From contig OZ242029.1 in NCBI GenBank assembly GCA_965205015.1, forward strand, positions 4,896,001 through 4,960,000: a stretch of DNA of 64,000 nt, in the 5' to 3' direction. This document shows positions 44,114-64,000 of the stretch, piece by piece. Positions within the stretch are counted from its first letter, which is position 1. The number at the start of each line of letters is the position of its first letter. The stretch is from Candidatus Poribacteria bacterium. GTDB lineage: Bacteria; Poribacteria; WGA-4E; WGA-3G. Both the position numbers and the translations under genes were made by a program. The notes beneath the pieces were generated by a model that was not told the origin of the DNA, did not search any database, and worked only from the letters and a program-made list of their open reading frames with translations.

Positions 44114-44150
44114 TTATGCAACCTTTGCTTCTTTAAATCGCGTCATTAAT
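44114..44150 (+). promoter_or_regulatory. Putative ECF-type promoter, copy 1
   Basis: TTATGCAAC-N17-GCGTCATTAAT; 4 copies with equal spacing. Confidence 0.6.
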
Positions 44151-44215
44151 AGTAACAGCAGTCTGAGAGTCGCGCGTTAAAAACGCGCATGCTTAACTCA
44201 CTTTGGAGAGACTTG

Positions 44216-47122
44216 ATGAAAAACGAAGATGCACAACTGGTTAACCGCTTCTTGACAGGTGACGAAAGTGCCTTTACCACGCTGGTAAAAAAATACCAGA
44301 AGCGCGTCCATGCACTCACATGGCGGAAGGTCGGCGATTTCCATACTGCCGAGGAACTCACACAAGACACCTTCCTCAAGGCATACCAGAAACTTGGGAC
44401 GCTGAAGAATCCGAGTCAGTTCGCTGGATGGCTCTATGTCATCGCTGATCGGCTCTGTATCGCGTGGCACCGAAGGCAGAAACCACCAATGGAATCTTTG
44501 GAAACAACGAGTGGAGAGGAGGTCGAGGCATCGTCTTACCGGCACTACGAAGATGAACAACGTGAAGCAGCTTCTGTTGAACATCGTTATGGACGCATTA
44601 GAGACCTCTTAGAAAAACTCCCCGAGAGCGAACGGACAGTTGTGACACTCCACTACCTCGGAGAAATGACGTGTAAAGCGATTGGTGAGTTTTTAGGTGT
44701 CTCTCCGAACACAGTTAAGAGTCGTCTCCAGCGTGCACGAAACCGTTTAAAGGAGCAAGAAACCATGATTCAGGAAACGCTTGGGGGTGTACATTTACCT
44801 ACCTCCTTCACCGATCACATTATGAAGCAAGTCGGTAACATAAAACCGGCATCTCCGACGCACAGCAAACCGTTTCTGCCGTGGGCAATCTCTGCCGCAA
44901 CAACCGTCTTTATCTTTCTAATAATGGGTGCGGGATCTCAATACCTTTCTCACTTCCAGAAGCCGTATAACCTGAACGCCCCATCGGAAACCACCGTTGA
45001 AATTATTGATGCCCCTATTGTCTTGGATACACAAGCAAAACCGGATTTACGGAACCAATCTGGACGTTTCGATACCACCGGTAAGAGCAGCAGTGCCGGT
45101 CCACAAGTCTCGGAACCTGTTATGCTTGCCGCTGCACAGGTAGAAAAGGAGCCGCGCCCGTCAACAAAACAGCAATGGATACAGGTAAGCGGTCCAAAAG
45201 AAGAAGCCTCCGTATCCGACTTATTGGTCAGTTCTTGGGGAGATGTCTATGCGGTTTCAAAAATTGGTATCTACAGATTAGCATCAGATGCCCCCACATG
45301 GACGCTCGTCAGTCCACTGCCACCAGAGACTTCTGTAGACAATCACGGTATACGGATGGCAGAACGAAAGGACACCCTCTATCTCGTCTTTCCTAACGGT
45401 GTGTTCGCTTCAAAAGACAGAGGTGAAACATGGACAAAACTGGGTGGGCGCCCAGAGGGACGCGCCATTGGATTGGTGATAACGGATGAAGCCTGGTATC
45501 TCACGCTTCGAGACGATGAAGGTATCTTCCGATCTACAGATGAAGGGAAGCAGTGGACCTCACTCGACAATGAAATAGCAGACAGCGGTGTTAATGCAAT
45601 AGCTGCCGTTGAAAACACAGTGTTTGTTGGGACAAATCAGGGGCTCTACCGCTTGCGTCCAGAGATGTCGGAGAAACTGACAATAGATACCACGAAAGCC
45701 ATCCGCTCTTTGTCAGTCTCCGGAAATAATCTCTATGTCGGGACAGGACTCGATCTAACGCAATTGGAAACCGAGGAAGGAAGGAAGGCACACTTTGAGA
45801 AACTTATAGAGGAATTTACGAGTAACGCCAATGCCCGGCAATGGGAGATTTTCCGCTCAACCGATTTGGGCGAGTCGTGGACAGATATAACACCGACCAG
45901 CACATCTCACATGATGAGAGCTGCATCGAGTACTAAAGTCGTGTCAACCGGAAATGCTGTTCTGGCATTAGGTATGATAAACTTCCACTCAACCGATAGG
46001 GGAAAAACATGGACAGAATTTGGCTTCAATAGCGACGAAATGATGTTGGATATATTTCCTGCTGTCGCAGTGGACGAAAATACCATCTTCAAAACCGGAC
46101 CCTCTGAACTTAAACGCTCAACCGATGGCGGCGAATCGTGGCATCTGTTTACAGATGGAATCGTAGGCACCAACGTATTCAACTTAGTTGGATTCAAAAA
46201 TGAACTTTATACGCCTGCCTCCAAAGGTGTTGCCAAATCCAGCGATGGCGGCGAGTCGTGGAACAAACTCACCGTGAGTTCTGGTGATCTCACACTAAAA
46301 CCAGTAGAGAAAGACACCTCTCTGATTTCCCCAAAATTCACAATTGCTGACGGTGTGCTTTATGTAGTCTCATTCTCTTTAGTCCCCGAGCATCAAATGC
46401 GTATTTTCCGTCTCTCTGCGAACGGAAACGTGTTAGTCCCTATCCAAGGAATACCTGCCCTTGAAGGTGCTCCTTCCACCAAGGATATAAAAGATTGGGC
46501 AGATAAATTGTTCCGATTCGATATATTTCCCGGAGCGTTCGCAGTCAGCGGTGAGACCTTCTATGCGGAATACACGCGGCAGCTGCTCCGGTGGAAACGT
46601 GGTGAATCAAAATGGTTTAATACCGGATTGGTAGATACAGACAGCGCAGATAAAAGCGATGATTCTATGAGGGGTTTCAAACTTGCTGTTTCAGAAGAGA
46701 CCGTCTATGTTGGAAAACGCGATGGACATCTCTTTCAATCGCTTGATAGTGGCAACACATGGAAAGATTTAACCCCAAACCTCCCACTCCGTTTTGAGCG
46801 TTTCAATGGGATAACCTTCGCGGGTTCAACGGTCTATGTTGCGACTGACGCAGGTGTCTTGACCTCAGAAGACGGTGAACATTGGCGCGCACTCACCGAT
46901 ACGGCAGGAACGCATCCCCTCATTGATCGAATGGCAGTGGATATCACAACAGTTTACGGTGTTGGGGATGAAGGTATCTATCGACTGAACAATCGCGATG
47001 AATGGGAAAAGATCTCTCCAGAAGTGCCCGATAGCGTCACCGCTTTCGTGATCAATAATGATCAATTCTATATCGTAACCGAACATCGCGGGATGTTCCA
47101 CGTCTCTCTCGAAAAAGAATAA
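44216..47122 (+). CDS. ECF sigma factor fused to TM helix and BNR/Asp-box beta-propeller (paralog 1)
   Basis: Sigma2 AEELTQDTFLKAY/FAGWLYVIA; sigma4 LGVSPNTVKSRLQRAR; TM WAISAATTVFIFLIMG; about 8 SxDxGxxW-type boxes. Confidence 0.88.
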   Translation: MKNEDAQLVNRFLTGDESAFTTLVKKYQKRVHALTWRKVGDFHTAEELTQDTFLKAYQKLGTLKNPSQFAGWLYVIADRLCIAWHRRQKPPMESLETTSGEEVEASSYRHYEDEQREAASVEHRYGRIRDLLEKLPESERTVVTLHYLGEMTCKAIGEFLGVSPNTVKSRLQRARNRLKEQETMIQETLGGVHLPTSFTDHIMKQVGNIKPASPTHSKPFLPWAISAATTVFIFLIMGAGSQYLSHFQKPYNLNAPSETTVEIIDAPIVLDTQAKPDLRNQSGRFDTTGKSSSAGPQVSEPVMLAAAQVEKEPRPSTKQQWIQVSGPKEEASVSDLLVSSWGDVYAVSKIGIYRLASDAPTWTLVSPLPPETSVDNHGIRMAERKDTLYLVFPNGVFASKDRGETWTKLGGRPEGRAIGLVITDEAWYLTLRDDEGIFRSTDEGKQWTSLDNEIADSGVNAIAAVENTVFVGTNQGLYRLRPEMSEKLTIDTTKAIRSLSVSGNNLYVGTGLDLTQLETEEGRKAHFEKLIEEFTSNANARQWEIFRSTDLGESWTDITPTSTSHMMRAASSTKVVSTGNAVLALGMINFHSTDRGKTWTEFGFNSDEMMLDIFPAVAVDENTIFKTGPSELKRSTDGGESWHLFTDGIVGTNVFNLVGFKNELYTPASKGVAKSSDGGESWNKLTVSSGDLTLKPVEKDTSLISPKFTIADGVLYVVSFSLVPEHQMRIFRLSANGNVLVPIQGIPALEGAPSTKDIKDWADKLFRFDIFPGAFAVSGETFYAEYTRQLLRWKRGESKWFNTGLVDTDSADKSDDSMRGFKLAVSEETVYVGKRDGHLFQSLDSGNTWKDLTPNLPLRFERFNGITFAGSTVYVATDAGVLTSEDGEHWRALTDTAGTHPLIDRMAVDITTVYGVGDEGIYRLNNRDEWEKISPEVPDSVTAFVINNDQFYIVTEHRGMFHVSLEKE

Positions 47123-47158
47123 TAGACATTTGCGCAACGATTCTCTCTACGTGTCTCC

Positions 47159-47201
47159 AATAGAGTGGTGATTTTACCCATAGCATCACCACTCTATTTT
47201 T
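47159..47201. terminator. Hairpin terminator after sigma fusion 1
   Basis: AATAGAGTGGTGAT/ATCACCACTCTATT stem followed by T run. Confidence 0.7.
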
Positions 47202-47348
47202 ATTCTAAAGGAACTTATCGCTAAACCCAACCTAAAAAGGGAGTTGATAACCCGCACGATTCTGTAGCGTATCTTGTTAGGGTGCGCACAATCTTTTGAA
47301 CAGACTCACAAACTATACTACAAAAATGGCAACTTGTGTTATATTATA

Positions 47349-48757
47349 CTAAAGTTTGGACAATATTGTAAGTTTCAAGCTGCTTTGTCGAAAGGTAGCG
47401 TGGTATCGTGTTCAGATATGGGATGAATATTCTGTGAGTTGGTCTCTTCTTGGGAACTCGCAGAATATTCCAACGCTCTGAGGTGCGACTGTAAATAAGC
47501 GACCCGTAACCCTTGGGTCAAGTGCTTCGGATGATACCAATGAATCCCGAGATGCTCGCAGACCTCTTTGACGCTCACGCGATCCGAGGGATACCGAGAC
47601 CCAAACTTCAAGAAGACCAACTTCGTCAGAGACGCTGCGACGAAACTCAGCTGCACGAAGCGATTGATGCTTTTGCGAGACTTGACCCGATAGGCATCAA
47701 ATCCGAAATGCTGCTTGACATCTCGAAACGCTGTTTCTATCTGCCACCTCTGCCGGTAGTATTCAACGATCTTCGGGAGCTCCAAGGTCATATCTGTTGT
47801 AAAGACACAGAAATACCGATACGGTTTTGAGGGTTTGACTCGGGTGCGTATCACGACGAGTCGGACGTCTGTCGGACACATTTTCGTCCGAACGACCTCT
47901 GAGGCGACCTGATACGTTTTTTCCAGGATGCAAACGTCTTGATACCGTAAGCGTTGGATGTTCAAACGGTCTCCATATTTCTTCGGACGCCCGCGCTGGG
48001 GGCGCTTCGGACGTTTCGGTAAACGATAAAACACCGCATTTGACTTCGCACGACACAACAGATGATGTCCGAGTTCCAAGAGCATTTCAAAGACTTTTCG
48101 GCGGCAGAACCCTCTATCAAAGAGGATCAACCCCCGGGGGAGCTTTGAACAGATACGTTTCAACACCGCATCACCTTTGTCCCGGAGCGTCTGAGGTGCA
48201 ATGAGTTTCACCCAGACCGGAAACAGCAACCAATCTGCCGCTGTCTCGCAGAGTAAACCTAATGCCCCAAACTCGTGTCCGAAGTGAAACTTTGATTGAT
48301 TCACGCGATGTTTACCGTGATAACTGAAGTTGCGGAAAAAATGTAAACCCCATTGGGTTTTACCCGTCTTCAAGGCTTTGGTGGCATCATAGACGTAAAC
48401 CCAGTCGGCAAACACGCCCTGGAGCCTTTTCATCAGGCACGCAGCAACCGCATCGGTATCCCATTTGCCCCGGGAAAGAAACTTCGGAAACGACCAATAG
48501 CGTGTCGCGGATCCACTCGACTGATACAGGTGCGTCAGGCTGCCTCCAGGCGGTTGAGTCATAAACCCAAAAATAAATGCTTGAAAAAGCGCAAAGTTTT
48601 GGGAGTTGAACAAATGACGAAAATCCGATACAATACTTTCTAAGTGGAGAAGCAGGGGCATTTTTGCCTTCCTTTCAAAACAGTGGTATGTTTATGAAAG
48701 GATACCTGCTTTTCTGCTTTCAAACATCTTAATTCTTTAAAATTGTCCAAACTTTAG
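47349..48757 (-). mobile_element. Intact insertion sequence (IS4/IS701-like DDE)
   Basis: 16-bp perfect TIR CTAAAGTTTGGACAAT; 9-bp TSD TATATTATA at 47340-47348 and 48758-48766. Confidence 0.92.
47375..48661 (-). CDS. DDE transposase
   Basis: YDAT, LFDRGF, YRQRWQIETAFRDVKQHFG. Confidence 0.92.
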   Translation of the reverse strand: MPLLLHLESIVSDFRHLFNSQNFALFQAFIFGFMTQPPGGSLTHLYQSSGSATRYWSFPKFLSRGKWDTDAVAACLMKRLQGVFADWVYVYDATKALKTGKTQWGLHFFRNFSYHGKHRVNQSKFHFGHEFGALGLLCETAADWLLFPVWVKLIAPQTLRDKGDAVLKRICSKLPRGLILFDRGFCRRKVFEMLLELGHHLLCRAKSNAVFYRLPKRPKRPQRGRPKKYGDRLNIQRLRYQDVCILEKTYQVASEVVRTKMCPTDVRLVVIRTRVKPSKPYRYFCVFTTDMTLELPKIVEYYRQRWQIETAFRDVKQHFGFDAYRVKSRKSINRFVQLSFVAASLTKLVFLKFGSRYPSDRVSVKEVCEHLGIHWYHPKHLTQGLRVAYLQSHLRALEYSASSQEETNSQNIHPISEHDTTLPFDKAA

Positions 48758-48762
48758 TATAT

Positions 48763-48881
48763 TATAGTAAAACCCGTAATTACTTATACACTAACACAAG
48801 GGCGAGGATGCAATCCTCGCCAGCGGTGGCGGGGTGTTTGTTCCCTGACGAACTGTAAACATATTTTTGGATTTTACTATA
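48763..48881. mobile_element. MITE-like element with 28-bp imperfect TIRs
   Basis: TATAGTAAAA...TTTTACTATA ends; internal palindrome GGCGAGGATGCAATCCTCGCC. Confidence 0.65.
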
Positions 48882-48931: not shown

Positions 48932-48968
48932 TTATGCACCATTCTGTTCTTTAAATCTCGTCATTAAT
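48932..48968 (+). promoter_or_regulatory. Putative ECF-type promoter, copy 2
   Basis: TTATGCACC-N17-TCGTCATTAAT. Confidence 0.6.
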
Positions 48969-49029
48969 TAGTGACAGCAGTCGGATAGTCGCGCGTTAAA
49001 AACGCGCACTCTTAAGTTACTGGAGAGAC

Positions 49030-51978
49030 TTGATGAAAAACGAAGATGCACAATTGGTCAACCAATTTCTGACAGGCGACGAGAACGCCTTCACCGCACT
49101 CGTAAAAAAATATCAGAAAAGCGTCCACGCCCTCACATGGCGGAAGGTTGGCGATTTTCATACCGCTGAGGAACTCACACAGGACACCTTCCTGAAAGCA
49201 TATCAGAAACTCGCGACGTTAAAGAATCCGAATCAGTTCGCGGGATGGCTCTATGTGATCGCCGATCGGCTCTGTATCGACTGGCATCGAAAGCAGAAAC
49301 CACCCATGGGATCCTTGGAAACCACCAGCGGAGAGGAGATTGAAGAATCTTCCTACCGTCACTACGAAGACGAACAACGTGAGGCAGCCTCCGTCGAACA
49401 TCTTCAAGAACACGTCAAAAGTCTTTTAGAGAAACTGCCGGAGAGCGAACGCACAGTTGTGACACTTCACTATCTTGGAGAAATGACCTATAAAGCGATC
49501 AGTGAATTTTTAGGCGTATCCCCAAACACGGTTAAAAGCCGCCTCCAACGCGCACGGAACCGTTTAAGACAGGAAGATGATAGGGTGCGCGACACCCTTA
49601 GTAGTGTAGATCTGCCCATAACTTTCACCGAAAATATTGTAAAACAAATCGCTGACATAAAACCTGTAGCCCCTACGAACAGTAAACCCTTAATACCTTG
49701 GGCGATCTCTACCGCAACAGCCATCTTTATTTTTTTAATAATGGGTGTAGGGTCGCAATATCTCTCCCGTTTCCAGAAACCGTATAACCTGAACGCTCGA
49801 TCGGAAACCATCGTTGAAATCATCGACACCCCCATTGTCCTTGACAGAGAAGAAAAACCGGACTTGCGGAACCAAGCCGGTCACCTCGATACCACCGGTA
49901 AAAGTAAAGGTGCCGGTCCACAAATTTCAGAACCTGTTGTGCTTGCCGCTGCTCAAGTAGAAAAGGAGACGCACCCGTCAACAAAACAGCAGTGGACACA
50001 AGCAAACGGTCCCGAAGGCGGAACAGTATCAGGATTACTTCTCAGCTCGACAGGTGATATCTACACCGTTTCCGCGAGCGGTATCTATAGATTCACACCA
50101 AATGCGTCTGTATGGGCACTTGTGAGTCCATTGCCGCCAGAGGCTTCCGAAGACTACAGCTGGAAACCGATGGCAGAACGAAACGGCACCCTCTACCTTG
50201 TATCGACTGATAAAGTGTGGGTCTCAACCGATAGCGGCGAAACATGGGAGTCGCTGGGTCCGCGTCCAAAAGGAAACCCTATCGGACTCGCCATCACGGC
50301 TCAAGGCTTATATCTCGCCCTTGAAAATCAGATTTTCCGATCCGAAAACGCAGGTAAACAGTGGATTCCGATGGACGATGGGATAATCAACGAAAACACT
50401 CACATTCTCACACTGACTGCTATCGAAAACACCGTGTTTGTAGGCATGAACCATGGACTCTACCGTTCGCGATCAGGGATGTGGGAAAAATTGCCGGTGG
50501 ATACCACCAAAGCCATCCATTCCTTGGCGGTTTATGAAAACGACCTCTATGTCGGGACAGGTCCCGATATTTCTCAATTAAACACTCCCGAAGGTGCTGG
50601 GGCGTTCATCGGTCAAGTTATGAGCAGTGACACCCGAAGTTCATGGGAGCTCTTCCACTCGGTCGACTTGGGCGATACGTGGACGGAACTAACACCGAAA
50701 ATCACTTCGTTCACAATGAAAATATCACCGGGTGCTAAAGTCCTGGTGAGTGGAGAGACAGTGTTAGTCTTAGGCGTCACGACGTTCCGCTCAACGGATG
50801 GTGGAAAAACATGGACGGACTTTGGATTTGACACATCCGATATGAATACGGCACTGAATTCAGTGACACTCAGTATGTTTCCAGCAGCGACAGTGGGCAA
50901 AAATACATTTCTCAAAGTTGGAATGCACGACGGACTCATCCGTTCAACCGATGGGGGTCAGTCGTGGTACCCATTCACGAAAGGGATGGTAGGTACCAAA
51001 GTGTTTGACCTGGTAGCATTCAAAAATGCGCTCTACGCAAATACCGGCTCAGGTATCGCCAAATCCGCTGATAACGGGAAGTCCTGGAAAACTCTTGCTG
51101 TGAATTCCGCAGAACTTGTGTTAGAACCGTCAGACCTAACTATACCTACGGATATCCTGATTTCCGCAAAATTAGCGATCTCTGACGGTGTGCTTTACGG
51201 CATCTCAGCAGCCTTCGACACACAAAACGAAGTTCGCCTTTTTCGTCTCTCCGCGAGCGGCGACGTGTTAGTACCTATCCAGGGACCTGCTACCTTCGGT
51301 GGAAATCTCTCCATAATAGCCATGATGGGTCTGGCAGATGCCACTCGGCAACTCGAAAGGTTCTCTGCAGAGTTCGCAGTGAGCGGCGAGACATTTTATA
51401 CAGAATATAAGAGACGGCTTTTCCGCTGGAAACGCGGTGAACCAGAATGGTTCAACACCGGATTGATAGATAAAACCCCGCTCTCTGATAATTATAACGA
51501 TGCTGTGAAAGAGCGTCAGAAAAGTATCGCACTTGCTGTTTCAACGGAAACCGTCTATGTCGGAAAACGTGATGGACATCTCTTTCAATCGTTTGATAGT
51601 GGCAACACATGGAAGGACCTGACTTCAAATCTGCCGCTGCGCTTCACGTACTTTAAAGAGATCGTCTTTGCGGGTCCAACAGTGTATGTCGCTACAGACA
51701 CGGGTGTCTTGACTTCAGAAACAGGTGAACACTGGCGAGCGATCACCGATAAAACCGGGAGCCATACCGTTATAGATCGAATTGCTGTGTCCGGTACCTC
51801 GGTTTACGGTGCTGGGAATGAAGGTGCCTATCAATTGAACCGTCGCGGTGAATGGAAAAAAATCTCGCCAGAAGTGCCAGGTCGGGTTATTTCTCTCGTT
51901 ATTAACGACGATACACTTTACGCTGTGACGGAAAAACGCGGGATGTTTCAGGTCTCGCTTGAAGAAGAAAACTATTGA
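49030..51978 (+). CDS. ECF sigma-TM-BNR beta-propeller fusion (paralog 2)
   Basis: Same architecture as 44216 with a near-identical sigma domain. Confidence 0.88.
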   Translation: MMKNEDAQLVNQFLTGDENAFTALVKKYQKSVHALTWRKVGDFHTAEELTQDTFLKAYQKLATLKNPNQFAGWLYVIADRLCIDWHRKQKPPMGSLETTSGEEIEESSYRHYEDEQREAASVEHLQEHVKSLLEKLPESERTVVTLHYLGEMTYKAISEFLGVSPNTVKSRLQRARNRLRQEDDRVRDTLSSVDLPITFTENIVKQIADIKPVAPTNSKPLIPWAISTATAIFIFLIMGVGSQYLSRFQKPYNLNARSETIVEIIDTPIVLDREEKPDLRNQAGHLDTTGKSKGAGPQISEPVVLAAAQVEKETHPSTKQQWTQANGPEGGTVSGLLLSSTGDIYTVSASGIYRFTPNASVWALVSPLPPEASEDYSWKPMAERNGTLYLVSTDKVWVSTDSGETWESLGPRPKGNPIGLAITAQGLYLALENQIFRSENAGKQWIPMDDGIINENTHILTLTAIENTVFVGMNHGLYRSRSGMWEKLPVDTTKAIHSLAVYENDLYVGTGPDISQLNTPEGAGAFIGQVMSSDTRSSWELFHSVDLGDTWTELTPKITSFTMKISPGAKVLVSGETVLVLGVTTFRSTDGGKTWTDFGFDTSDMNTALNSVTLSMFPAATVGKNTFLKVGMHDGLIRSTDGGQSWYPFTKGMVGTKVFDLVAFKNALYANTGSGIAKSADNGKSWKTLAVNSAELVLEPSDLTIPTDILISAKLAISDGVLYGISAAFDTQNEVRLFRLSASGDVLVPIQGPATFGGNLSIIAMMGLADATRQLERFSAEFAVSGETFYTEYKRRLFRWKRGEPEWFNTGLIDKTPLSDNYNDAVKERQKSIALAVSTETVYVGKRDGHLFQSFDSGNTWKDLTSNLPLRFTYFKEIVFAGPTVYVATDTGVLTSETGEHWRAITDKTGSHTVIDRIAVSGTSVYGAGNEGAYQLNRRGEWKKISPEVPGRVISLVINDDTLYAVTEKRGMFQVSLEEENY

Positions 51979-51990
51979 TGTTATAGATTT

Positions 51991-52265
51991 AAGGCTACGG
52001 GCACCCACAAGGGGTGCCCCTACGGCTGGTGTCGGTTCAGGATATGGGCACCTACAAGGCTACGGGCACCCACAAGGGGTGCCCCTACGGCTGGTGTCGG
52101 TTTAGGATACGGGCACCTACAAGGCTACGGGCACCCACAAGGGGTGCCCCTACGGCTGGTGTCGGTTCAGGATATGGGCACCTACAAGGCTACGGGCACC
52201 CACAAGGGGTGCCCCTACGGTTGGTGTCGGTTTAGGATACGGGCACCCACAAGGGGTGCCCCTAC
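51991..52265. repeat. 65-bp tandem array of REP-like palindromes
   Basis: Units start 51991, 52056, 52121, 52186; core GGGCACCCACAAGGGGTGCCCCTAC x5. Confidence 0.9.
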
Positions 52266-55361: not shown

Positions 55362-58061
55362 ATGAAATTTTGCTTATATTTTACGCTGTGTGTTACGCTC
55401 ATGATGCCGTTCTCTGTTTCCGCGGAAACGGACAATTCTGAAGAAAACTTGACGCCGAAAAGGAAAAGAAGCATCTGGCAGCGCGTCTTTCCCCGCACAG
55501 GTGATATAGAAGGCACTGTCTACCAACGCGATACCGATGCCCGATTGGTTGAAGCAGAGGTGTATATCGTTGAAACCGATCAGCAGCGAAAAACAGGTAA
55601 AGACGGAACGTTCCACTTTACCGAAATCCCCGTCGGAACATATACGCTGTCCATATCCCATCCAACTCACAATACCTCCACAGAAATTCCGATTAAGATT
55701 CGCGCAGGTGAGACGCTCCGCGGGAGATTTTACCTTGGCGCAGCGGTTCCATTTATCAACACTACCGATAGCGGAGATATAGACGGGTATGTTTACAGCC
55801 AAATAACAGGAAAACCGCTTGCTGAGGCAGAGGTCCGTTTCATCGAAATTGACGTCTCTGGCAGAACGGATGCCGCTGGAAACTTTCGGTTTATCGCTAT
55901 CGTTCCTGGGACTTATACTTTGTCGATTACACACGCGACACACAAGATACCGACGACTACCACAGTAGCGGTAACAGCAGGGGATACCACGCAGGTAAAG
56001 ATATACCTCGGCACAGGGATAAGACTTGAAACGGTTGTTGTAGAGGGGCAACGTCTCCCCCCAACGATAAGCCGCAAAGAGATCCGCGGCAGCGAACTGA
56101 TCCGGATTCCCGGCACCGGCCGTGATGCGCTCAAAGGACTCACGACGCTGCCGAGCATCGGTATCCCCAACGATCTTTTTGGTATTCTCTATATCCGCGG
56201 GAGTGCACCTGGGGAGACGCTTCTCTATTTCGACAGAACGCCACTCGGTTATCCGTTTCACTATGCCGGACTTTTCTCAACAATTAACTCCGATAGTATT
56301 GAGGACATCCGTATCTATGCCGGTGGGTACGGTGCTGAATTTGGGTTGGATTCACAATCGGTTATAGACATCCGTTCGCGCGAAGCGTTAGAAAAGAGAT
56401 GGGCGGGTGTGCTTAATCTGGACATTATATCGCCCTCTGGGTTTCTTGAAGCCAAAATTGGGGACAAAGGCTACGCGTCTGTCGCTGGACGATTCACCAT
56501 CTATAATCTCATACTGGGACTTTTCTTTGACTGGACATTTCCGACCTGGTCAGACTATCAACTTAAATTTGCTTATCAACTCACGGAAAAGCATCACCTC
56601 ACGCTCAACGGTTTAGGCGCGACAGATCATTTTGACTTCTCTAACTTTGGATCGGAAGAATCAGAAGAAATAGATGATGTTTCCGCCTATTTTAAAAACG
56701 GATTTGAAGCGGAAGGCATTCACCTCCGTTCTGATTTCACTGACAAACTCACGTCTCATCTCTCTCTGACGCGTTCCCACAACTTTCTCAATATCCACTT
56801 CGGCGACACCTCACGTCAAGAGGACAAGCCTGAAAGTGAAAGTTTCATCTACAGTGTGAAGGTTAACGTCCCGACCTATACCCTTCGCGAAGACGTGTCC
56901 TACACATTAACGCCAACGCTTCAATTAGAGCCTGGATTTCTCCTTGCCTTTAGTCCAGCCAAGAGTCTCACATGGACCTCGTCTGCAGGAAACATAGATT
57001 TTGAGGCTGACGAGGAACCTTCATGGACACAGAAATCTGACGAATTTAATTACACGTTTCGACGTGCTGAGGGCTACTTACAAGCGCGCTACGATCCGTT
57101 ATCGTTTTTGTCAGTCGCCCTTGGAACGCGATTCGATTACCTCAATCTGACGGAAGAGCTCTCAATCCAGCCGCGCGGGAGTCTTAGCCTCACACTGCCA
57201 TCAACTTCCACGCTTCGGTTCGCTTACGGCAGATATGAACAGAGTCCGTTAGCATATCAGGTGCTAAAGGCAGATGGAAACCGATCCCTAAAATCGAGCC
57301 TGACCGAACATTATATCATGGCGTTAGAACACCAACTATCCCCACAAACGGAACTCAAGTTCGCGCTTTATTACAAAGACATGGAAAAATTAGTTACGCG
57401 GTCTGTCAATATTGAAACACTCTTTGAGGATTCGGATGCCGCGGTTACAACAGGTTATTTCAATCAGGGTGTCGGGTTTGTGAGTGGGGCGGAGATATTC
57501 CTGCGGCATCGTGTCAGCGAAAAATTCTTTGGATGGGTATCTTATGCCTATACCCATGTCGAGCGACGTGAGACCCCGGACGCCGCTTACAAACCGTTTC
57601 TCTTCAATAATACACACATTGTCAGCATCGTTGCCAACTACAGTCCAACGACGAAAACAGAGATCGGCGCGAAGTGGCAATATTCCAGCGGCACCACCGC
57701 AGTTCCCTTAAGCAATCTCATCACGGTTCAAGACCCTGTGACGGCGGGAATGCATCCACTCATCTCTGATGTTGCCGGCGCGATTTTTCCGACAGAATTC
57801 CCGTCTTATCACCGCTTGGATCTCCGTTTTAGCGAGAAAAGAAAGTGGTGGGGACTCCCTTTGACAGCATATACCGAGATTTTGAATGTCTACAATAAAA
57901 AAAATAAAATAAGATTCCGTTTGGCTGATAGTCTTCTGGAGGAACTTGAAACCTTGGAACTTGAGGCGGACACGGATGAACTGGGTTTTGAAATCAGTGA
58001 GTATTTTGAAATCCCTCAACTTCGCTTTACCTTTTCTGCCGGACTCATCTATGAATTTTGA
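55362..58061 (+). CDS. TonB-dependent receptor with two carboxypeptidase-regulatory-like domains
   Basis: Two GDIxG.V...GTYTLSI repeats, plug (LPSI...IRGS, GGYGAEFG), YHRLDLR, C-terminal YEF. Confidence 0.85.
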   Translation: MKFCLYFTLCVTLMMPFSVSAETDNSEENLTPKRKRSIWQRVFPRTGDIEGTVYQRDTDARLVEAEVYIVETDQQRKTGKDGTFHFTEIPVGTYTLSISHPTHNTSTEIPIKIRAGETLRGRFYLGAAVPFINTTDSGDIDGYVYSQITGKPLAEAEVRFIEIDVSGRTDAAGNFRFIAIVPGTYTLSITHATHKIPTTTTVAVTAGDTTQVKIYLGTGIRLETVVVEGQRLPPTISRKEIRGSELIRIPGTGRDALKGLTTLPSIGIPNDLFGILYIRGSAPGETLLYFDRTPLGYPFHYAGLFSTINSDSIEDIRIYAGGYGAEFGLDSQSVIDIRSREALEKRWAGVLNLDIISPSGFLEAKIGDKGYASVAGRFTIYNLILGLFFDWTFPTWSDYQLKFAYQLTEKHHLTLNGLGATDHFDFSNFGSEESEEIDDVSAYFKNGFEAEGIHLRSDFTDKLTSHLSLTRSHNFLNIHFGDTSRQEDKPESESFIYSVKVNVPTYTLREDVSYTLTPTLQLEPGFLLAFSPAKSLTWTSSAGNIDFEADEEPSWTQKSDEFNYTFRRAEGYLQARYDPLSFLSVALGTRFDYLNLTEELSIQPRGSLSLTLPSTSTLRFAYGRYEQSPLAYQVLKADGNRSLKSSLTEHYIMALEHQLSPQTELKFALYYKDMEKLVTRSVNIETLFEDSDAAVTTGYFNQGVGFVSGAEIFLRHRVSEKFFGWVSYAYTHVERRETPDAAYKPFLFNNTHIVSIVANYSPTTKTEIGAKWQYSSGTTAVPLSNLITVQDPVTAGMHPLISDVAGAIFPTEFPSYHRLDLRFSEKRKWWGLPLTAYTEILNVYNKKNKIRFRLADSLLEELETLELEADTDELGFEISEYFEIPQLRFTFSAGLIYEF

Positions 58062-58144: not shown

Positions 58145-58951
58145 ATGAAAAAACCGGTCGTTCTGATTCTTATCGGTATCGGCGTTGCACTTCTCGTTGT
58201 CGGGATCGTCTTTGTCGTTCCGTGGTTCGGTAAAATGATGGACGAAATGGAACAGTTAGCCGATAAGCACGTGCAACACAGGCAGGCTTTAAGAATGTCT
58301 GCACGCGAACCGTTGACGGATGAACAGGAAAACCTTTTGTCCCAACTTCTCAAAATCACACAGGCACCAGATGCGGGGCAAAAAAACGATTTTGACGGTA
58401 TCCTGTCAAGCGAACCCTATCTAACATATCTAAAGGCGCGGGAAGGGGAAGACTACGCAGATTTTCGAGCATACGTCGAGGCAATGCCGACAGAAAACAT
58501 GAAAACCATTGCGCTCTCCCGAATCAAAGCCACACTCGGAACGGATAAAAGCGATGAAGAATTAGACGTATGGACGGATTACTATTTCATCGTCCGAGCG
58601 TGGGGAATCACCGTTGAAGATCCGCGGGACAATCTGAAAGAACTCAATGAACTCCATCAAACATACCTCATAGAGCCGCTAATGAACAGCGGTTCAGACA
58701 TATCCGACCTGCATACCCAAATCGTCCAAATCGGTATGTCCTCTATATTCATGACAGAGGAAAATAACGTGTTCAAAGAGGCGTGGCGTGAACGCTTAGA
58801 AAGATATGGCGAACAAGAAGGACTCCTCCGATGCGCGATTGCGGCTCCAGGTGAATTCGCGCTCATGTGCTCGTTTTTTCCAGACTTCGCAACCTTCCAC
58901 GAATGGATACTCACACGTCCAGAACCTGAATCCGAAGAATCAGAACAATAG
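58145..58951 (+). CDS. Hypothetical membrane-anchored protein
   Basis: N-terminal TM; apparent paralog of the 54397 protein. Confidence 0.65.
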   Translation: MKKPVVLILIGIGVALLVVGIVFVVPWFGKMMDEMEQLADKHVQHRQALRMSAREPLTDEQENLLSQLLKITQAPDAGQKNDFDGILSSEPYLTYLKAREGEDYADFRAYVEAMPTENMKTIALSRIKATLGTDKSDEELDVWTDYYFIVRAWGITVEDPRDNLKELNELHQTYLIEPLMNSGSDISDLHTQIVQIGMSSIFMTEENNVFKEAWRERLERYGEQEGLLRCAIAAPGEFALMCSFFPDFATFHEWILTRPEPESEESEQ

Positions 58952-59046
58952 TATCCACCACAACACCGGCACCCGAGATGTGAGGGTTCTTTCCAATTTC
59001 AAACAATTTTGCCATCTTTTCGATAAAAATCCAGATTTTTTTCGCT

Positions 59047-59083
59047 TTATGCACCCTTTTCGGCGCGAACCTGTATCATTAAT
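59047..59083 (+). promoter_or_regulatory. Putative ECF-type promoter, copy 3
   Basis: TTATGCACC-N17-GTATCATTAAT. Confidence 0.55.
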
Positions 59084-59276
59084 TATAAAAGGGGCATATA
59101 TCACCTCACGGAAAAATGAACGGTAGCGTTTCTGAAATTTTTCCGCCCCGATATTTGATGTCAATGATAGCCGAATTGTCGGCAACGTTTAAAACGCGTC
59201 ATTAGGATATAGACGCAGATTATCAAAGGTTAAACTTTAAACACGAGGCGACATAACGTCTCTGGGGGAAAAAAAA

Positions 59277-60299
59277 ATGAAAAGCATTTTTCACGGTAGA
59301 AAAACTCTCGCAAGGCTTTCACTCTTCGCAACTTTAGGACTCGCCATTCTTTGGGGTGTCTCTCTCTATTTATCTGCACACGGTCATGAAATTGGAGCGT
59401 CGAATATGCAGTTACGTGAACACATTGAACTCGACTCCAACGCACCGTTCGCGAATAAAAAGTATACCGGTCCCCAAAACGCGCAGGAATTGATGAAAGC
59501 GTTAGATGCAGATTACGATAAGAGCCTGGCAAAGACCAGTGTGAGTGTATCCGGTAAGTTCACAGGGGCAAAAACTGTGACTTATAGTAGTGATCTCACA
59601 ATACGTGAGATAGATGCAAGGTATCCACGGGCGGAATGGCTTCAGCTCCTTTTGGAGAAGGGCATCACTATAGATGATTCCCTCGAGTATGCGTCCTTGT
59701 TGTCAAAGCGTTACACTCTGGCACTCTTGGAAGACAATCCAGATTTGCGGCAGTCAGGATTCCTCGGTATTCCAGCAACGGATGATTGGGAAACCTATAA
59801 AGTCGCTTACATCGATAAGTTGGTAAACGATCACACCAAGATCCAAGAAGCCGTAGAACAGGTTGAACGCAGTAAGAAGGTAATTGAGGGTGCGAAAACG
59901 CAGATTCAACAGATTCAAGCGCACACTAAACTCGCCATTGGATGTGGCACAGCACACCTTGAACGTGCCATGACTCAACTCGAGCGTAGCACAGCACACC
60001 TTGAACATGCGAAACCACAGATTGAACAGAGTCAAGCGCATGCTAAACTCGCCATCGAATGCAGTAAGGCGGTAGTTGAAGATGCCAAGACACAGATTCA
60101 ACATAGCAAAGCGCAAATTGAACGCGCTATGACTCAACTCGAACATAGCATAACTCAACTTGAACGTGCAAAAAAAGAGTTGAGTTCACAACAACTCGGA
60201 CACATCCAGAAGCAGATTGAGCATATACAACGGACTTTAGTCCCACCCAAAAAACCGGCACCTGCGCAGGAATCGATTCCTCCGCAGGGGTCAAACTAA
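59277..60299 (+). CDS. Hypothetical exported/anchored protein with heptad coiled-coil C-terminus
   Basis: N-terminal hydrophobic segment; repeats RAMTQLE/TAHLE/KxQIE. Confidence 0.65.
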   Translation: MKSIFHGRKTLARLSLFATLGLAILWGVSLYLSAHGHEIGASNMQLREHIELDSNAPFANKKYTGPQNAQELMKALDADYDKSLAKTSVSVSGKFTGAKTVTYSSDLTIREIDARYPRAEWLQLLLEKGITIDDSLEYASLLSKRYTLALLEDNPDLRQSGFLGIPATDDWETYKVAYIDKLVNDHTKIQEAVEQVERSKKVIEGAKTQIQQIQAHTKLAIGCGTAHLERAMTQLERSTAHLEHAKPQIEQSQAHAKLAIECSKAVVEDAKTQIQHSKAQIERAMTQLEHSITQLERAKKELSSQQLGHIQKQIEHIQRTLVPPKKPAPAQESIPPQGSN

Positions 60300-60465: not shown

Positions 60466-60502
60466 TTATGCACCCTTTCCGTTTGAAAAAAGTATCTTTA
60501 AT
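60466..60502 (+). promoter_or_regulatory. Putative ECF-type promoter, copy 4
   Basis: TTATGCACC-N17-GTATCTTTAAT. Confidence 0.55.
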
Positions 60503-60579
60503 TATAAAATAGCTTGAGCAACGTAGAACGGTATTTCAAATCGGCGTGTTATCAATAACACGAAAAAAGGAACGACATC

Positions 60580-61302
60580 ATGAAAATTTTAAGCATTGGA
60601 TTGGGCGTATTTATCCTAACTTGTTCTGCTTGGGCAGGAACATTTGTGGAGACCTTCAATGACAACGGAAATCTCGAAAAGTGGCAGGAGCTGATCAGAT
60701 TCGGTTTAGATGCGCCCGGTCCTTGGCATATTGTTGATGGCGAACTTCAGTATATCCTGGACTTTGATGATGGCGGCTTGACTCGTTTACTTACGACTGG
60801 GGATGAAATGTGGCAAGATTACAGCATCGAATTTGATGTTAAACCCCTTAGAAAACACGGGGAGGGAAACATTGCGATTGCCGCGCGAATTAATCAGACA
60901 TGGGGAGTCGTATGCACGATTGGCGACCTACCCTTCCCCGAACCTGAATCAATGGCGACCTGTTATGGCGGCAATTTGCAAGGGCATGCTTTTCTAAACT
61001 TTGCACAGGAACGTCATCGCTCGTTGAAACCGTCGAGATGGCATCATCTGAAGTTGAGCGTTAAGGGAAATCTCTTGACTTTCTGGATTAATGAAAAGCA
61101 AGTTCTCGGACCGATAGTTTTGAAAGCTATAGGCAATTTTCCTGACTACCCTAATGGTAAAGTCGGTTTCGGGGTCTCGAATTATTCGGTACTCTTTGAT
61201 AATATTACCATTACTGGTGCCGATATTCCACATCAGCGTGGGTTATCCGTAACACCGAGCGCAAAACTTGCGACCACCTGGGGACACTTGAAGCAGCTTT
61301 AG
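60580..61302 (+). CDS. Secreted DUF1080/concanavalin-fold-like protein with KLATTWGHLK tail
   Basis: Signal peptide; WHIVDGEL, WQDYSIEFDV, WHHLKL, GKVGF, FDNITI. Confidence 0.65.
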   Translation: MKILSIGLGVFILTCSAWAGTFVETFNDNGNLEKWQELIRFGLDAPGPWHIVDGELQYILDFDDGGLTRLLTTGDEMWQDYSIEFDVKPLRKHGEGNIAIAARINQTWGVVCTIGDLPFPEPESMATCYGGNLQGHAFLNFAQERHRSLKPSRWHHLKLSVKGNLLTFWINEKQVLGPIVLKAIGNFPDYPNGKVGFGVSNYSVLFDNITITGADIPHQRGLSVTPSAKLATTWGHLKQL

Positions 61303-61334
61303 AGCAGTGGAAATACATTGAATGGAGGATTCTG

Positions 61335-64000
61335 ATGGAAAGAGAAAACGATGTTCAATTGATTCGTAGAATCTTGTCCGGTGACGACGCGGCATTTAAT
61401 ACCTTAGTCCGAAAGCACCAAAAGGGTATTCACGCGCTTGCATGGCGAAAAGTTGGCGATTTTCACATCGCCGAAGAGATTGTACAAGACACGTTCCTCC
61501 AGGTATACAAGCACCTCGCGCAACTCAAGAATCCGAATCAGTTTTCCGGATGGATGTATGTCATCGCCAGTCGACTTTGCCTGAAATGGCTTCAAAAGCA
61601 GAAGAAAAAATCTGCGATGCAATCGTTGGAGGACACACCTGTGGAAGAAATCGAAGAATCCTCTTACACACATTATGTATCGGAACAACGGCTAACAGAG
61701 AGCACCGAGCGTCGTCAGGAACTCGTCAAAAAACTTCTGGCACAGCTACCCGAGAGTGAGCGCACAGTCGTAACACTTCACTTCCTCGGAGAGATGACGG
61801 CAAAGGAAATTGGAAAACTCTTAGGTGTGTCGGTGAATACGATTAAGAGTCGCCTTCGCCGGGGACGGAAACGTTTACAGGAACAACGAGAGGAACTCCT
61901 GGTGAGCGAAACACTCGGGAGCATCCCATTCCCTGCCCACGTGACCGAGCGTATCATGGAACAGGTGGCTAACATGCAGCCGACACCGGCTCCGGTTGGA
62001 AAGCCATTGGTCCCGTGGATGGCTTTCGGGACGGCTGTGGCTTTCGTTATTTTCATGCTCGGCATGAGTAATCAGTATCTTGCCAGATTTCAGAAACCGT
62101 ACAGTTTTGAGGCGGAATCCGAACCCACGATTGAAATTGTCGATGCTCCTATTGTCCTTGATATCGTATCAAAGCCATCTATACGCAACCAGTTTGGACA
62201 GGCTACCACTCCGGGTAAACGCAGCAGTGCTGGTATCCAGGTTTCTGAAGCAGTTTTGAGATCCAGTGCGTTGGAGGATTCTCTTGTGTTTGGGACTTCC
62301 TCGCAATGGACACAGGGAAATGCCCCGTCAGGGGGGCGTATACAGGATATGTTCGCGACCTCTGACGGAACTGTCTATGCTGTTGCACCCACAGGAATAT
62401 ACAGATCAGAGACAGACGCAACTGCATGGACGCGGGTCAACGCAAGCGTTCCTATTGGCAACGCTCGAATGCCGATGGCAGCGCATAATGGAAACCTTTA
62501 TATCGCCTCTGTGGATGAAATACTTACTTCAGTTGATCGTGGTGAGACATGGCATACGCTGGGTCCCCGACCAAAGGGACCCACAGTTGGACTCATCATT
62601 ACAGACGCCCCCCAAGATGCCGATTCACAAGTAGATATCACGATGTATCTGGCACTTAGAGATGAAGGGGTTTTCCGATCCACAAATGGGGGAATACAAT
62701 GGCATCCGTTTAACGATGGATTGACGGGCGAAATAATATCCACAATGGCTGCTGTTGGAGAGACGATATTTATCGGGACAGGGCGCGGTCTCTATCGTCT
62801 CGATTCAGGTATGTGGAAAAAGTTGCCCGTGGAAACATCAAGAGCCGTCTATTCCTTGACAGTATCCGAGAATAATCTCTATGTTGGAACCGGTCCCGAT
62901 CTGTTGGGATTCACGCCAATAAAAACAGGACAAGTGGTGCCAAAAGCCGAGTCGCATGTACTTAAGCTTTTCCATTCGGCTGACCTGGGAGCGTCGTGGA
63001 CTGACATAACACCGAGTTATAAATCTGATAATCACGGGATACCCTCTGGCATAACAGTTTTGGCTGCCGGTGAAACGCTTTTCGCGTCAAGTGTCAAGCA
63101 CGAATACCGTTCAACAGATGGTGGACACACCTGGACAGAACTGTCAGGAGACACGAATATGGTCATGATCAATAGTCTTCCAGCTGTGGCGGCGAACGAG
63201 AGGACATTTTACAAAACGGGTCCATACGGCATTTTTCGGACCACGGATGGCGGTAAGTCATGGGGTCTATTTGTAGATGGGATGGCAGGTACACGCCTAA
63301 AGGATATGGTTGTCCTCAACGACAGATTCTACGCGCATACAGGTTATGAGGTTTATCAATCAACCGACGAAGGAGTGTCTTGGAAAAAACTTGTGATTGA
63401 CGGGAGCTTTTCGGCGGAGTCTACTGCGTTTGAATGGTCAGAAAAAGATAAGAACAAGGCGCGCGTCCATATCTTTTTTTATTCAAAACTGATAGTGGAT
63501 GGCAACCGTCTTTATTTTCTTACACGTGAAGATAGCAAATTGAAAATTTTCCGCTTATCTACAGATGGCAATACACTCAGTCCGGTTCAAGGCATACCTG
63601 ACTTCAATGATAAAGAATTAGCCCCCGAATTGTGGATAAGTGGCAAGATGATAAAGCCAACGAACGCACCCGATAGCTCCAAAAAAGACAATGCGTCACT
63701 CACCACACGTTTTGTTCCTGGAGGTGTGGCAGTCAAAACGGTTGCAGTCAGTAATGATGTGTTCTACGTGGAATACAAAGGCAGTCTTTTCAAATGGAGA
63801 CTTGGAGATCCAGAGTGGATAAATACGGGATTGATAGATACGGATCACATGTCCGATGGTGATTCCAGAAAGGGACTTCAGATAGCGGTTTCGGGAGAAA
63901 CTGTCTATGTAGGTAAGCGAGATGGTAAGTTGTTTCAGTCCCTTGATGGCGGGAACAGTTGGAGAGAAATCACACCAAACCTGCCGCTTGGCTTTACCTG
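61335..64000 (+). CDS. ECF sigma-TM-BNR beta-propeller fusion (paralog 3, runs off window; absent from ORF track)
   Basis: Manual translation MERENDVQLIRRILSGDDAAFNTLVRKHQKGIHALAWRKVGDFHIAEEIVQDTF...; ends ...YVGKRDGKLFQSLDGGNSW like paralogs. Confidence 0.85.
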   Translation, partial: MERENDVQLIRRILSGDDAAFNTLVRKHQKGIHALAWRKVGDFHIAEEIVQDTFLQVYKHLAQLKNPNQFSGWMYVIASRLCLKWLQKQKKKSAMQSLEDTPVEEIEESSYTHYVSEQRLTESTERRQELVKKLLAQLPESERTVVTLHFLGEMTAKEIGKLLGVSVNTIKSRLRRGRKRLQEQREELLVSETLGSIPFPAHVTERIMEQVANMQPTPAPVGKPLVPWMAFGTAVAFVIFMLGMSNQYLARFQKPYSFEAESEPTIEIVDAPIVLDIVSKPSIRNQFGQATTPGKRSSAGIQVSEAVLRSSALEDSLVFGTSSQWTQGNAPSGGRIQDMFATSDGTVYAVAPTGIYRSETDATAWTRVNASVPIGNARMPMAAHNGNLYIASVDEILTSVDRGETWHTLGPRPKGPTVGLIITDAPQDADSQVDITMYLALRDEGVFRSTNGGIQWHPFNDGLTGEIISTMAAVGETIFIGTGRGLYRLDSGMWKKLPVETSRAVYSLTVSENNLYVGTGPDLLGFTPIKTGQVVPKAESHVLKLFHSADLGASWTDITPSYKSDNHGIPSGITVLAAGETLFASSVKHEYRSTDGGHTWTELSGDTNMVMINSLPAVAANERTFYKTGPYGIFRTTDGGKSWGLFVDGMAGTRLKDMVVLNDRFYAHTGYEVYQSTDEGVSWKKLVIDGSFSAESTAFEWSEKDKNKARVHIFFYSKLIVDGNRLYFLTREDSKLKIFRLSTDGNTLSPVQGIPDFNDKELAPELWISGKMIKPTNAPDSSKKDNASLTTRFVPGGVAVKTVAVSNDVFYVEYKGSLFKWRLGDPEWINTGLIDTDHMSDGDSRKGLQIAVSGETVYVGKRDGKLFQSLDGGNSWREITPNLPLGFT

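Follow-up and report, generated by a model that had tools for sequence, protein, structure and literature searches.

Extracytoplasmic function (ECF) sigma factors that are fused to their own transmembrane sensor represent, to our knowledge, the least studied mode of ECF signalling, and IutY is the only one for which we know of a worked-out mechanism. The window analysed here, a stretch of 64,000 nt from a Candidatus Poribacteria bacterium (assembly GCA_965205015.1, contig OZ242029.1, positions 4,896,001 to 4,960,000), carries three paralogous genes of this kind, which we call sigA, sigB and sigC. They raise the question of how a sigma factor joined through a membrane helix to a large beta-propeller might be controlled, and which genes it would serve. 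We found that the three proteins share one architecture, that each of them has a recognisable ECF-type promoter, whose -10 element covaries with the subtype of the sigma domain, and that a part of the gene neighbourhood is conserved among relatives. The best explanation, in our view rather probable, is that they are autoregulated membrane-tethered ECF sigma factors with a periplasmic GH74-like sensor, whose sigma domain would be released on signal.

Architecture, fold and spread of the sigma fusion proteins

The three fusion genes are located as follows.

44216..47122, + strand: sigA, 968 amino acids (aa); sigma-2 and sigma-4, transmembrane helix, linker and double Asp-box propeller
49033..51978, + strand: sigB, 981 aa; paralog of sigA with identical architecture
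61335..64000, + strand: sigC, third paralog; 888 aa visible, the 3′ end lying beyond the window

The start of sigA was placed at the ATG at 44216, which has GGAGAG before it; the start given by the open reading frame (ORF) finder, 44189, lies further upstream. The initial annotation had read these genes as three paralogs on the plus strand, each joining a sigma part to one transmembrane helix, a linker and a BNR propeller, and Pfam matches and hydrophobicity agreed on this for sigA, sigB and sigC, as did an AlphaFold2 (AF2) model of sigA. Sigma70_r2 was matched by Pfam at E values of 1.8e-13, 1.4e-14 and 7.9e-13 in the three paralogs, and Sigma70_r4_2 at 2.7e-16, 8e-18 and 5.9e-17; no other sigma region was matched, which is the domain content of ECF (group 4) sigma factors, and the NCBIfam model TIGR02937 (sigma70-ECF) scored 101.8 bits (cutoff 42.9). 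The C-terminal part matched Sortilin-Vps10, BNR and PSII_BNR in Pfam, and the propeller part is present, with a length of ~650 aa rather than the ~700 aa first given. Each paralog has a single hydrophobic segment at aa 220-243, with a Kyte-Doolittle value of 1.9-2.0. In sigA, the sigma domain occupies aa 1-183, the transmembrane helix 221-243, the linker 244-319 and the ectodomain 320-968. Overall identity is 64% between sigA and sigB and 47% between sigA and sigC; by domain, sigA and sigB agree best in the sigma part (86%) and least in the ectodomain (54-56%). The nearest solved structures to the sigma domain were SigW (E 5.6e-23), sigma-H/AlgU-type sigmas, RpoE and SigE. SigW, the sigma-H/AlgU-type sigmas and RpoE are set free when a single-pass anti-sigma factor undergoes regulated intramembrane proteolysis.

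The region around the membrane helix is of special interest for the control of the sigma domain. The linker FQKPY...IEIIDAPIVLD, noticed at first sight of the sequence, was common to all three paralogs in the alignment, and in an alignment of 39 family sequences Q248, P250 and Y251 were conserved in at least 90% and E262 was invariant, as were P219 and P222 around the tether. An AF2 model of sigA built on the same 39 sequences, with a mean predicted local distance difference test (pLDDT) score of 74.8, showed sigma helices up to residue 177, short helices at 182-190 and 198-207 and a transmembrane helix at 221-243, while the stretch 238-318 was disordered (pLDDT 25-40) though it carries the conserved linker motif. 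Only ~36 residues lie between sigma-4 and the transmembrane helix. No anti-sigma domain of the FecR or zinc-finger type was matched by Pfam within aa 184-330 at E<=0.01, and no autoproteolysis motif was recognisable in the linker. The absence of an anti-sigma gene nearby, also noted initially, was borne out, as no ORF of the region carried a Pfam anti-sigma domain at E<=0.01 and the intergenic gaps of the cluster are too short for such a gene. Taken together, the predicted topology points to a one-component anatomy, in which a membrane-tethered ECF sigma factor would be combined with an extracytoplasmic double propeller and no separate anti-sigma gene.

The ectodomain (320-968) was modelled by AF2 as a beta-rich structure with pLDDT 80-94. 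A Foldseek search against the PDB returned GH74 xyloglucanases first (2cn2_A, E 5e-21, TM-score by target 0.59-0.61, 14-16% identity), and many GH74 entries, with their tandem seven-bladed beta-propellers, were among the matches; after them came the periplasmic double-propeller sensors BT4673 and BT4663 of Bacteroides hybrid two-component systems (HTCS), with low TM-scores (0.22-0.31, E ~1e-15 to 1e-18). A sequence profile of the ectodomain also found GH74 first in the PDB (2cn3_A, E 7.4e-21). The repeats drive the sequence alignments with GH74 out of register, and the catalytic residues therefore cannot be mapped by sequence. Within the 39-sequence alignment, the invariant ectodomain residues are G, W, S and Y, and the sole acidic residue listed, D637 (at least 90%), sits in an STDGG Asp-box, the residues not having been checked individually against the motif. 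As we saw no conserved pair of acidic residues at the positions of this alignment that are invariant or at least 90% conserved, we interpret the ectodomain as a binding module whose fold descends from a GH74-like one. A glycan ligand, as suggested in the initial annotation, is plausible, given that the modelled fold is akin to GH74 xyloglucanases and to the glycan-sensing periplasmic domains of Bacteroides HTCS.

The same fusion was found in many other proteins. A homology search limited to 532-1694 aa gave 6290 matches among 8000 scored, and the best 120 of these 6290 had an identical domain set at 67-99% identity; PF25852.1 stands in the precomputed annotation of nearly all family members. 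With the ectodomain alone, 179 representatives (50% clusters) were obtained at E<=1e-30. Among the best 150 representatives, 41 carried sigma, linker/transmembrane and propeller parts, 31 of them with a length of at least 900 aa; 18 were giant multi-propeller proteins, 77 were propeller-only, many of these being fragments, and 10 had the linker/transmembrane part and the propeller but no sigma match. Divergent members retained at least a weak sigma-2 match. Since so many representatives carry the same fusion, it is real and old, and not an assembly artefact. All named homologs and 78 of 79 related loci (described below) belong to Candidatus or uncultured Poribacteria, and the named matches of the divergent fusion P0346, when used as the query, were all from Poribacteria. 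By these sequence matches, the fusion family is large and, as far as the matches carry names, confined to Candidatus Poribacteria. Split or unfused forms were considered and rejected, as the 10 sigma-less representatives include N-terminally truncated calls and degenerate sigma-2 matches, and no clear separate anti-sigma genes were seen.

Promoter motif and proposed activation

Upstream of both sigA and sigB, a T-tract is followed by ATGCAMC-N18-CGTC-ATTAAT. When the window was scanned with the pattern ATGCAMC-N18-YRTC-NTTAAT, allowing up to two mismatches, exactly four matches were obtained in the 64 kb, all without mismatch, against 0.26 expected, and none of 100 shuffles reached four. All four are intergenic and on the plus strand, with the consensus ATGCAMC-N18-YRTC-WTTAAT, and they precede sigA, sigB, p340 and the p240-sigC pair.

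44116..44150, + strand: ECF-type promoter motif of sigA, ATGCAAC-N18-CGTC-ATTAAT with a T-tract 5′ of it; exact pattern match, kept upstream of orthologs
48934..48968, + strand: ECF-type promoter motif of sigB, ATGCACC-N18-CGTC-ATTAAT
59049..59083, + strand: ECF-type promoter motif of p340, ATGCACC-N18-TATC-ATTAAT
60468..60502, + strand: ECF-type promoter motif of p240-sigC, ATGCACC-N18-TATC-TTTAAT

Promoters of the ECF type at the sigma factor's own gene, with -35 (..AAC) and -10 (CGT.) elements, were thereby found for sigA, sigB and p240-sigC. This ECF-type promoter is a new element of the present analysis, and each fusion paralog has a recognisable one. We also searched 79 related loci, which had been fetched with 10-kb flanks through an alignment of S55-like proteins, one of which is encoded next to sigB, and whose ORFs were clustered. 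A slightly looser pattern gave 47 matches in these 1.53 Mb, compared with 2.35 in shuffles. The genes downstream of the matches were fusion genes (18), ABC-2 permease genes (7), WD40 genes (3), S55-like genes (3), p240 (2) and p263 (2); four more matches stood before other genes, and eight were intragenic or distant from genes. Conversely, 21 of the 27 fusion genes had the motif within 400 nt upstream. The -10 type followed the sigma subtype, with CGTC in 10/10 sigA/sigB-like genes and TATC in 9/9 sigC-like genes. The position of the motif before fusion genes and this covariation indicate autoregulated ECF sigmas with paralog-specific promoters; the fusion proteins are thus, on sequence evidence, most likely autoregulated sigma factors.

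In relatives (L001, L003, L004, L005, L032 and L061), the motif equivalent to that at 59049 precedes a gene of an ABC-2 family permease of ~470 aa. This gene is absent from the window (58952-59276), where p340 directly follows the motif instead. Between promoter and start of sigA and sigB, as well as in their orthologs, a conserved leader segment, the imperfect palindrome AGTCGCGCGTTAAAAACGCGC, is present at 44160-44190 and 48978-49008. The consensus fold of the sigA/sigB 5′ leader segment AGTCGCGCGTTAAAA was weak (5 pairs, -2.4 kcal/mol), and no structure is claimed for it. General scans of 44-64 kb for sigma-70 promoters (31 against 24.1 in shuffles) and terminators (27 against 21.1) were not above background, and a scan of the whole window with Rfam returned 0 families.

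In the mechanism that we propose, each fusion would be a single-pass inner-membrane protein with sigma-2 and sigma-4 in the cytoplasm and a non-catalytic double propeller in the periplasm, which would sense a ligand, most likely a glycan. At rest, the sigma domain would be held at the membrane. A signal would lead to a cut in the ~75-residue conserved, disordered juxtamembrane linker, after which a site-2 intramembrane protease would cut the transmembrane helix and free a sigma domain of ~200 aa. The freed sigma could then bind core RNA polymerase and read TGCAMC-N18-CGTC (sigA/sigB type) or TGCACC-N18-TATC (sigC type). The outcome would be positive feedback on the sigma factor's own gene together with expression of exported-protein genes, namely sigB-S55-like-p263-TBDR-like-p268, p340 and p240-sigC, TBDR standing for TonB-dependent receptor. 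Release by regulated proteolysis is proposed here by analogy with IutY and SigW/RsiW.

Several observations weigh against this mechanism. The activation steps are drawn wholly from analogy, the positive-inside signal at the transmembrane helix is weak in the sequence, and no site-2 protease gene was found in the window. With no anti-sigma domain and a tether of only ~36 residues, the sigma factor might work while tethered. Further, 4 of the best 150 representatives are sigma plus propeller with no linker/transmembrane match. In P0259 and P0388, the sigma part is joined straight to the propeller with neither transmembrane helix nor linker, which suggests that the propeller can also serve in the cytoplasm; judged by their sequences, these two are possibly cytoplasmic variants of the family. 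Finally, the ectodomain is probably non-catalytic, a judgement made from family conservation alone.

Gene neighbourhood and the S55-like protein

The window is chromosomal, as its first part (1-15.5 kb) is a ribosomal-protein operon with secY and rpoA, followed by mixed metabolic genes. Between the fusion genes, the following further features were located.

47159..47198, + strand: likely terminator, a perfect hairpin with a 14-bp stem and then a T-run, 37 nt past the sigA stop
47340..48766, - strand: IS701-family insertion sequence; transposase 47375-48661 (NF049999, E 1.5e-59; DDE_Tnp_1)
51991..52254, no strand: tandem repeat in the gap between sigB and the S55-like gene; 65-bp unit present 4.1 times at 95% matches and containing GGGCACCC/GGGTGCCC palindromes
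52315..54309, + strand: S55-like exported protein, 664 aa, probable lipoprotein with an invariant GMSGSP
54397..55188, + strand: p263, lipoprotein with an LLGC lipobox; helical family without known function that includes p268
55362..58061, + strand: TBDR-like outer-membrane protein with two N-terminal CarboxypepD_reg domains
58145..58951, + strand: p268, member of the p263 family with an N-terminal anchor
59277..60299, + strand: p340, anchored protein of coiled-coil type; a 117-bp repeat lies inside the gene
60580..61302, + strand: p240, exported DUF1080/3-keto-disaccharide-hydrolase-like protein of lectin fold (PF06439, E 1.7e-11), 33 nt 5′ of sigC

The interleaving of these genes with the fusion genes on one strand was correctly described at first, but the minus-strand IS701-family element between sigA and sigB had gone unmentioned. 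It has 28-nt terminal inverted repeats with 93% complementarity and is outside the signalling system. In relatives, the gap between sigA and sigB holds a gene for a small exported protein (145 aa); the window has no remnant of this gene. The coding tandem repeat of p340 (117 bp, 59891-60123, 2 copies, 73% matches) gives a repeated coiled-coil segment.

The S55 protease lipoprotein of the initial annotation was retained in part. The protein is a probable lipoprotein with the GMSGSP motif, but its Pfam S55 match (PF05580, E 0.0041, 28 residues) reached 17.6 bits and missed the gathering threshold of 25. Its start was placed at the GTG at 52315 and not at 52144, as the 5′ part of the longer ORF runs into the tandem repeat. 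GMSGSP and D106 were invariant in the alignment of S55-like proteins, with no invariant His upstream of the Ser motif, and the GMSGSP region aligned to SpoIVB 9lnf_A (E 0.031) over ~45 residues only. Among look-alike clusters, PF05580 was present in 37%, 86% and 87% of the members, and some S55-like homologs carry it in their precomputed annotation. An AF2 model built on a 26-sequence alignment was unusable (pLDDT 39.4, predicted TM-score 0.26). SpoIVB (S55) acts outside the membrane and signals to SpoIVFB, leading to the processing of pro-sigma-K in Bacillus. The S55-like protein shares the aligned GMSGSP with it, but the likeness covers ~45 residues in a protein of twice the length of SpoIVB, and most members of the S55-like family are unlinked to sigma genes.

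The TonB-dependent receptor of the initial annotation was supported by language-model look-alikes, which were all TBDR clusters (0.98-0.99), but its Plug match stayed below threshold (21.4 bits against a cutoff of 23.9). The C-terminal residue of the protein is F. Pfam matched neither a barrel model nor a signalling (STN) domain in it, and a phmmer search against the PDB found no receptor. p263 and p268 form one exported family of unassigned function, and a complex prediction of sigB aa 244-981 with mature p263 gave a score of 0.23, with the mark at 0.32, which weighs neither way.

We then compared the gene order among the 79 related loci. In 17 of them, the S55-like gene has a fusion gene at a distance of at most 4.5 kb. 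By contrast, folD and an SDR gene precede 42 S55-like genes, and a search of 10 kb around these 42 showed no fusion gene. In the tree of S55-like proteins, the fusion-linked genes fall into two separate clades, one of 17 rows with 100% support and one of 6 rows, in which 3 are fusion-linked. Orthologs of sigB adjoin the S55-like gene in L001, L003, L004 and L061 and stand ~390 nt upstream of it in L032; in the window, the 65-bp tandem repeat separates the two genes, which adjoin in relatives. The order sigB, S55-like, p263, TBDR, p268 is repeated in these five loci, and L005 has the order of the window from the S55-like gene on but lacks a fusion gene upstream of it. None of p340, p240 and sigC is present in all six of these loci. 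A second order was found in 9 loci, with PD40 genes, a p240-like gene, the fusion gene, p263-like genes, sometimes a WD40 gene, and the S55-like gene; two p263-like genes come after the fusion gene in 8 of the 9, and in a tenth locus, the 2.4-kb contig L009, only the genes of p263-like and S55-like type are visible. The divergent loci L071, L073 and L079 also pair fusion and S55-like genes. A TBDR homolog is present in 6 of the 79 loci and absent from the second order and the divergent loci.

The two S55-like clades and the adjoining sigB orthologs indicate that the link between fusion and S55-like genes is real but partial, while the 42 genes in the folD-SDR context indicate that the core role of the S55-like family lies elsewhere. 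The co-occurrence of fusion, S55 and TBDR genes, which the initial annotation proposed to test, therefore did not hold as a conserved system, with the TBDR in 6 and the fusion in 17 of the 79 loci. From gene order, fusion, p263 family and S55-like gene appear as the recurrent link and the TBDR as lineage-specific, and the p263/p268 family accompanies fusion genes more consistently than the TBDR-like gene does. In the window, sigB-S55-like-p263-TBDR-like-p268 is a probable operon.

These results bear on the possibility of a dedicated three-part system, in which the S55-like lipoprotein would be the site-1 protease that cuts the linker and the TBDR-like protein would import the sensed glycan. 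The partial link just described, the S55-like gene directly adjoining sigB orthologs, the alignment of the invariant GMSGSP with the SpoIVB active-site region and the fusion-type promoter right before the S55-like genes of L019, L065 and L079 are all consistent with it. However, the folD-SDR context of 42 S55-like genes, the rarity of the TBDR homolog, the lack of an STN match in it, the sub-threshold S55 match with no invariant His, and the AF2 model at pLDDT 39, which leaves the fold unsupported, speak against it, and being a target of the sigma factor does not make the S55-like protein the activating protease. We consider this system unlikely.

The possibility of envelope surveillance arises from the same genes. 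Here, the propellers would watch glycans of the cell's own envelope, or products of their breakdown, instead of sensing nutrients or host glycans, and the S55-like protein, p263/p268 and the outer-membrane protein would be stress-induced maintenance proteins, as DegP is induced by RpoE on stress. The sigma domain is nearest to envelope-stress sigmas of the SigW, RpoE and AlgU type, and the predicted targets are all exported or envelope proteins. Moreover, 7 of the 42 folD-linked S55-like genes (loci L021, L026, L029, L030, L034, L074 and L019) have another ECF-like motif, GTAATC-N16-19-CGTT, upstream of them, compared with 56 of 5000 random windows. This enrichment suggests that the S55-like protease family is generally ECF-controlled, and such control would fit a role as target at least as well as a role as activator. 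The supplement of PMC7826278, as far as covered, also proposes cell-wall sensing for ECF128s2 anti-sigmas with identical Pfam domains. However, diverged paralogs with ectodomains that change much faster than the sigma part better suit diversified external ligands than one housekeeping signal, and neighbours include lectin-like and glycan-related folds (DUF1080, Laminin_G_3, PD40, WD40). To envelope surveillance we give a low probability, equal to that of the three-part system. Autoregulated, signal-released sigma factors remain the explanation that we prefer.

Relation to described systems

The initial annotation did not know the gene combination as a described system. In the parts of the ECF literature covered here, both membrane-anchored sigma/anti-sigma hybrids and ECF128s2 anti-sigmas with BNR/sortilin/YCF48 are described, and the statement holds only in part; the proteins represent a variant, so far undescribed, within a known class of signalling proteins and not a new kind of system. 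No relevant literature was found on sigma or ECF factors of Poribacteria or on sigma factors with BNR, sortilin or Asp-box domains, and one metaproteomics paper mentions a sigma-factor antagonist, which is unrelated.

According to the parts of Casas-Pastor et al. 2021 covered, 19 ECF groups carry C-terminal extensions. ECF128s2, a group of Actinobacteria in that work, is followed at +1 by a transmembrane anti-sigma with BNR/Asp-box, sortilin and/or YCF48, and its predicted promoter is CCAACC / GGCGTC. The Pfam types of the ectodomain (BNR/Asp-box, sortilin, YCF48) are those of the fusion proteins, a glycan-related role has been proposed for the sensing domain, and the promoter resembles the TGCAACC ... 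CGCGTC of the Poribacteria motif. In contrast to the separate anti-sigma of Actinobacteria, sigma and ectodomain are fused in the Poribacteria. ECF128s2 is, within the literature covered, the closest described relative in kind, and the fusion proteins, compared by description, look like its fused counterpart in another phylum.

In IutY of Pseudomonas putida (ECF243), as described in the parts of PMC8999054 covered, an N-terminal ECF sigma, one transmembrane helix and a periplasmic C-terminal part are likewise joined in one protein, a sigma/anti-sigma hybrid that is freed by Prc and then RseP, and the truncated sigma is constitutively active. IutY has a FecR-type anti-sigma domain and a periplasmic domain and the signal reaches it from a siderophore TBDR that carries a signalling domain, whereas the fusion proteins have no anti-sigma domain and a GH74-like sensor, and their adjacent TBDR-like gene is not conserved. 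C-terminal transmembrane helices with extracytoplasmic binding domains, as in the fusion proteins, are also described for ECF52 (SCO4117), ECF48 and ECF53 of Actinobacteria and for ECF57 of Planctomycetes (PMC8999054, PMC7826278). SCO4117 has a carbohydrate-binding ectodomain, and proteolytic release is expected for ECF52 (PMC8999054), which differs in having a zinc-finger anti-sigma domain and a proline-rich region. Some ECF57 members carry WD40-like propeller repeats (PMC7826278), and this group has ~2 transmembrane helices and a conserved Cys pair. In the accounts of ECF52, ECF48, ECF53 and ECF57 covered, an Asp-box double propeller is described for none of them.

Likenesses to the ectodomain extend beyond sigma factors. 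The GH74 xyloglucanases (2cn2, 6p2l, 5fkq), its best structural matches, share the tandem beta-propeller with Asp-boxes, but at 14-16% identity, and the ectodomain has no conserved acidic pair that we could see and is membrane-anchored behind a sigma factor. The Bacteroides HTCS BT4663, which senses heparin/heparan sulphate, and BT4673 (4a2l, 3ott) similarly place a periplasmic double propeller in a single-polypeptide transmembrane regulator, but they signal through a histidine kinase, a receiver and an AraC domain and not through a sigma factor.

The least likely explanation, and in our judgement a distinctly improbable one, is that the sigma factor stays tethered and recruits RNA polymerase at the membrane like ToxR/CadC, with the ligand altering its oligomeric state or conformation: the lack of an anti-sigma domain and of a recognisable autoproteolysis motif in the linker, the conservation of the short tether with its invariant P219 and P222, and targets that encode exported proteins and would be co-translationally inserted at the membrane are in line with it, but the ECF literature covered describes no sigma factor that is active while tethered to the membrane, there is hardly space for holoenzyme and DNA with a tether of ~36 residues, the hybrid IutY requires proteolysis (PMC8999054), and the long, disordered yet conserved periplasmic linker resembles a processing or recognition segment.

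The preferred explanation, signal-induced release of an autoregulated sigma factor, offers a clean case of such fusions, with no anti-sigma domain, a well-folded sensor resembling a glycan enzyme, a candidate cleavage linker and a sharp promoter. With the promoter, regulons can be predicted in a symbiont phylum that is uncultivated, and the family gives testable handles on how the sponge-associated Poribacteria sense their surroundings; as a compact sensor and promoter pair, it may serve as an orthogonal switch. A bolder extension, to which we assign a small chance, is that Poribacteria evolved and expanded such "sigma receptors", with inhibition by the tether only, fast-diverging GH74-derived propellers for distinct host (sponge matrix) or environmental glycans, and a new periplasmic processing module of a recruited S55-like protease and p263/p268, parallel in function to SpoIVB signalling. 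If this were true, the symbiont would possess a set of switches that turn glycan signals directly into transcription, with a promoter code that can be read from the -10 element (CGTC or TATC).

Some further features of the window were observed. GC-rich palindromes of the GGGCACCC...GGGTGCCC type build intergenic tandem arrays not only at 51991-52254 but also at 870-1024 and 23311-23413, with periods of 65, 64/31/17 and 42/21 bp, and these arrays look like REP-like elements of this genome. A low-GC island at 31961-35647 (0.39 against ~0.50), probably acquired horizontally, encodes an Eco57I/MmeI-type fused restriction-modification methylase on the minus strand (33116-35647) and also holds an unannotated ORF of 389 aa. 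Two genes unrelated to the sigma cluster encode a Tricorn-type protease homolog (26733-29996, 1087 aa, PD40 + PDZ_Tricorn + S41) and a DUF6785/DUF6784 protein (19328-21250, 640 aa, E 6e-139).

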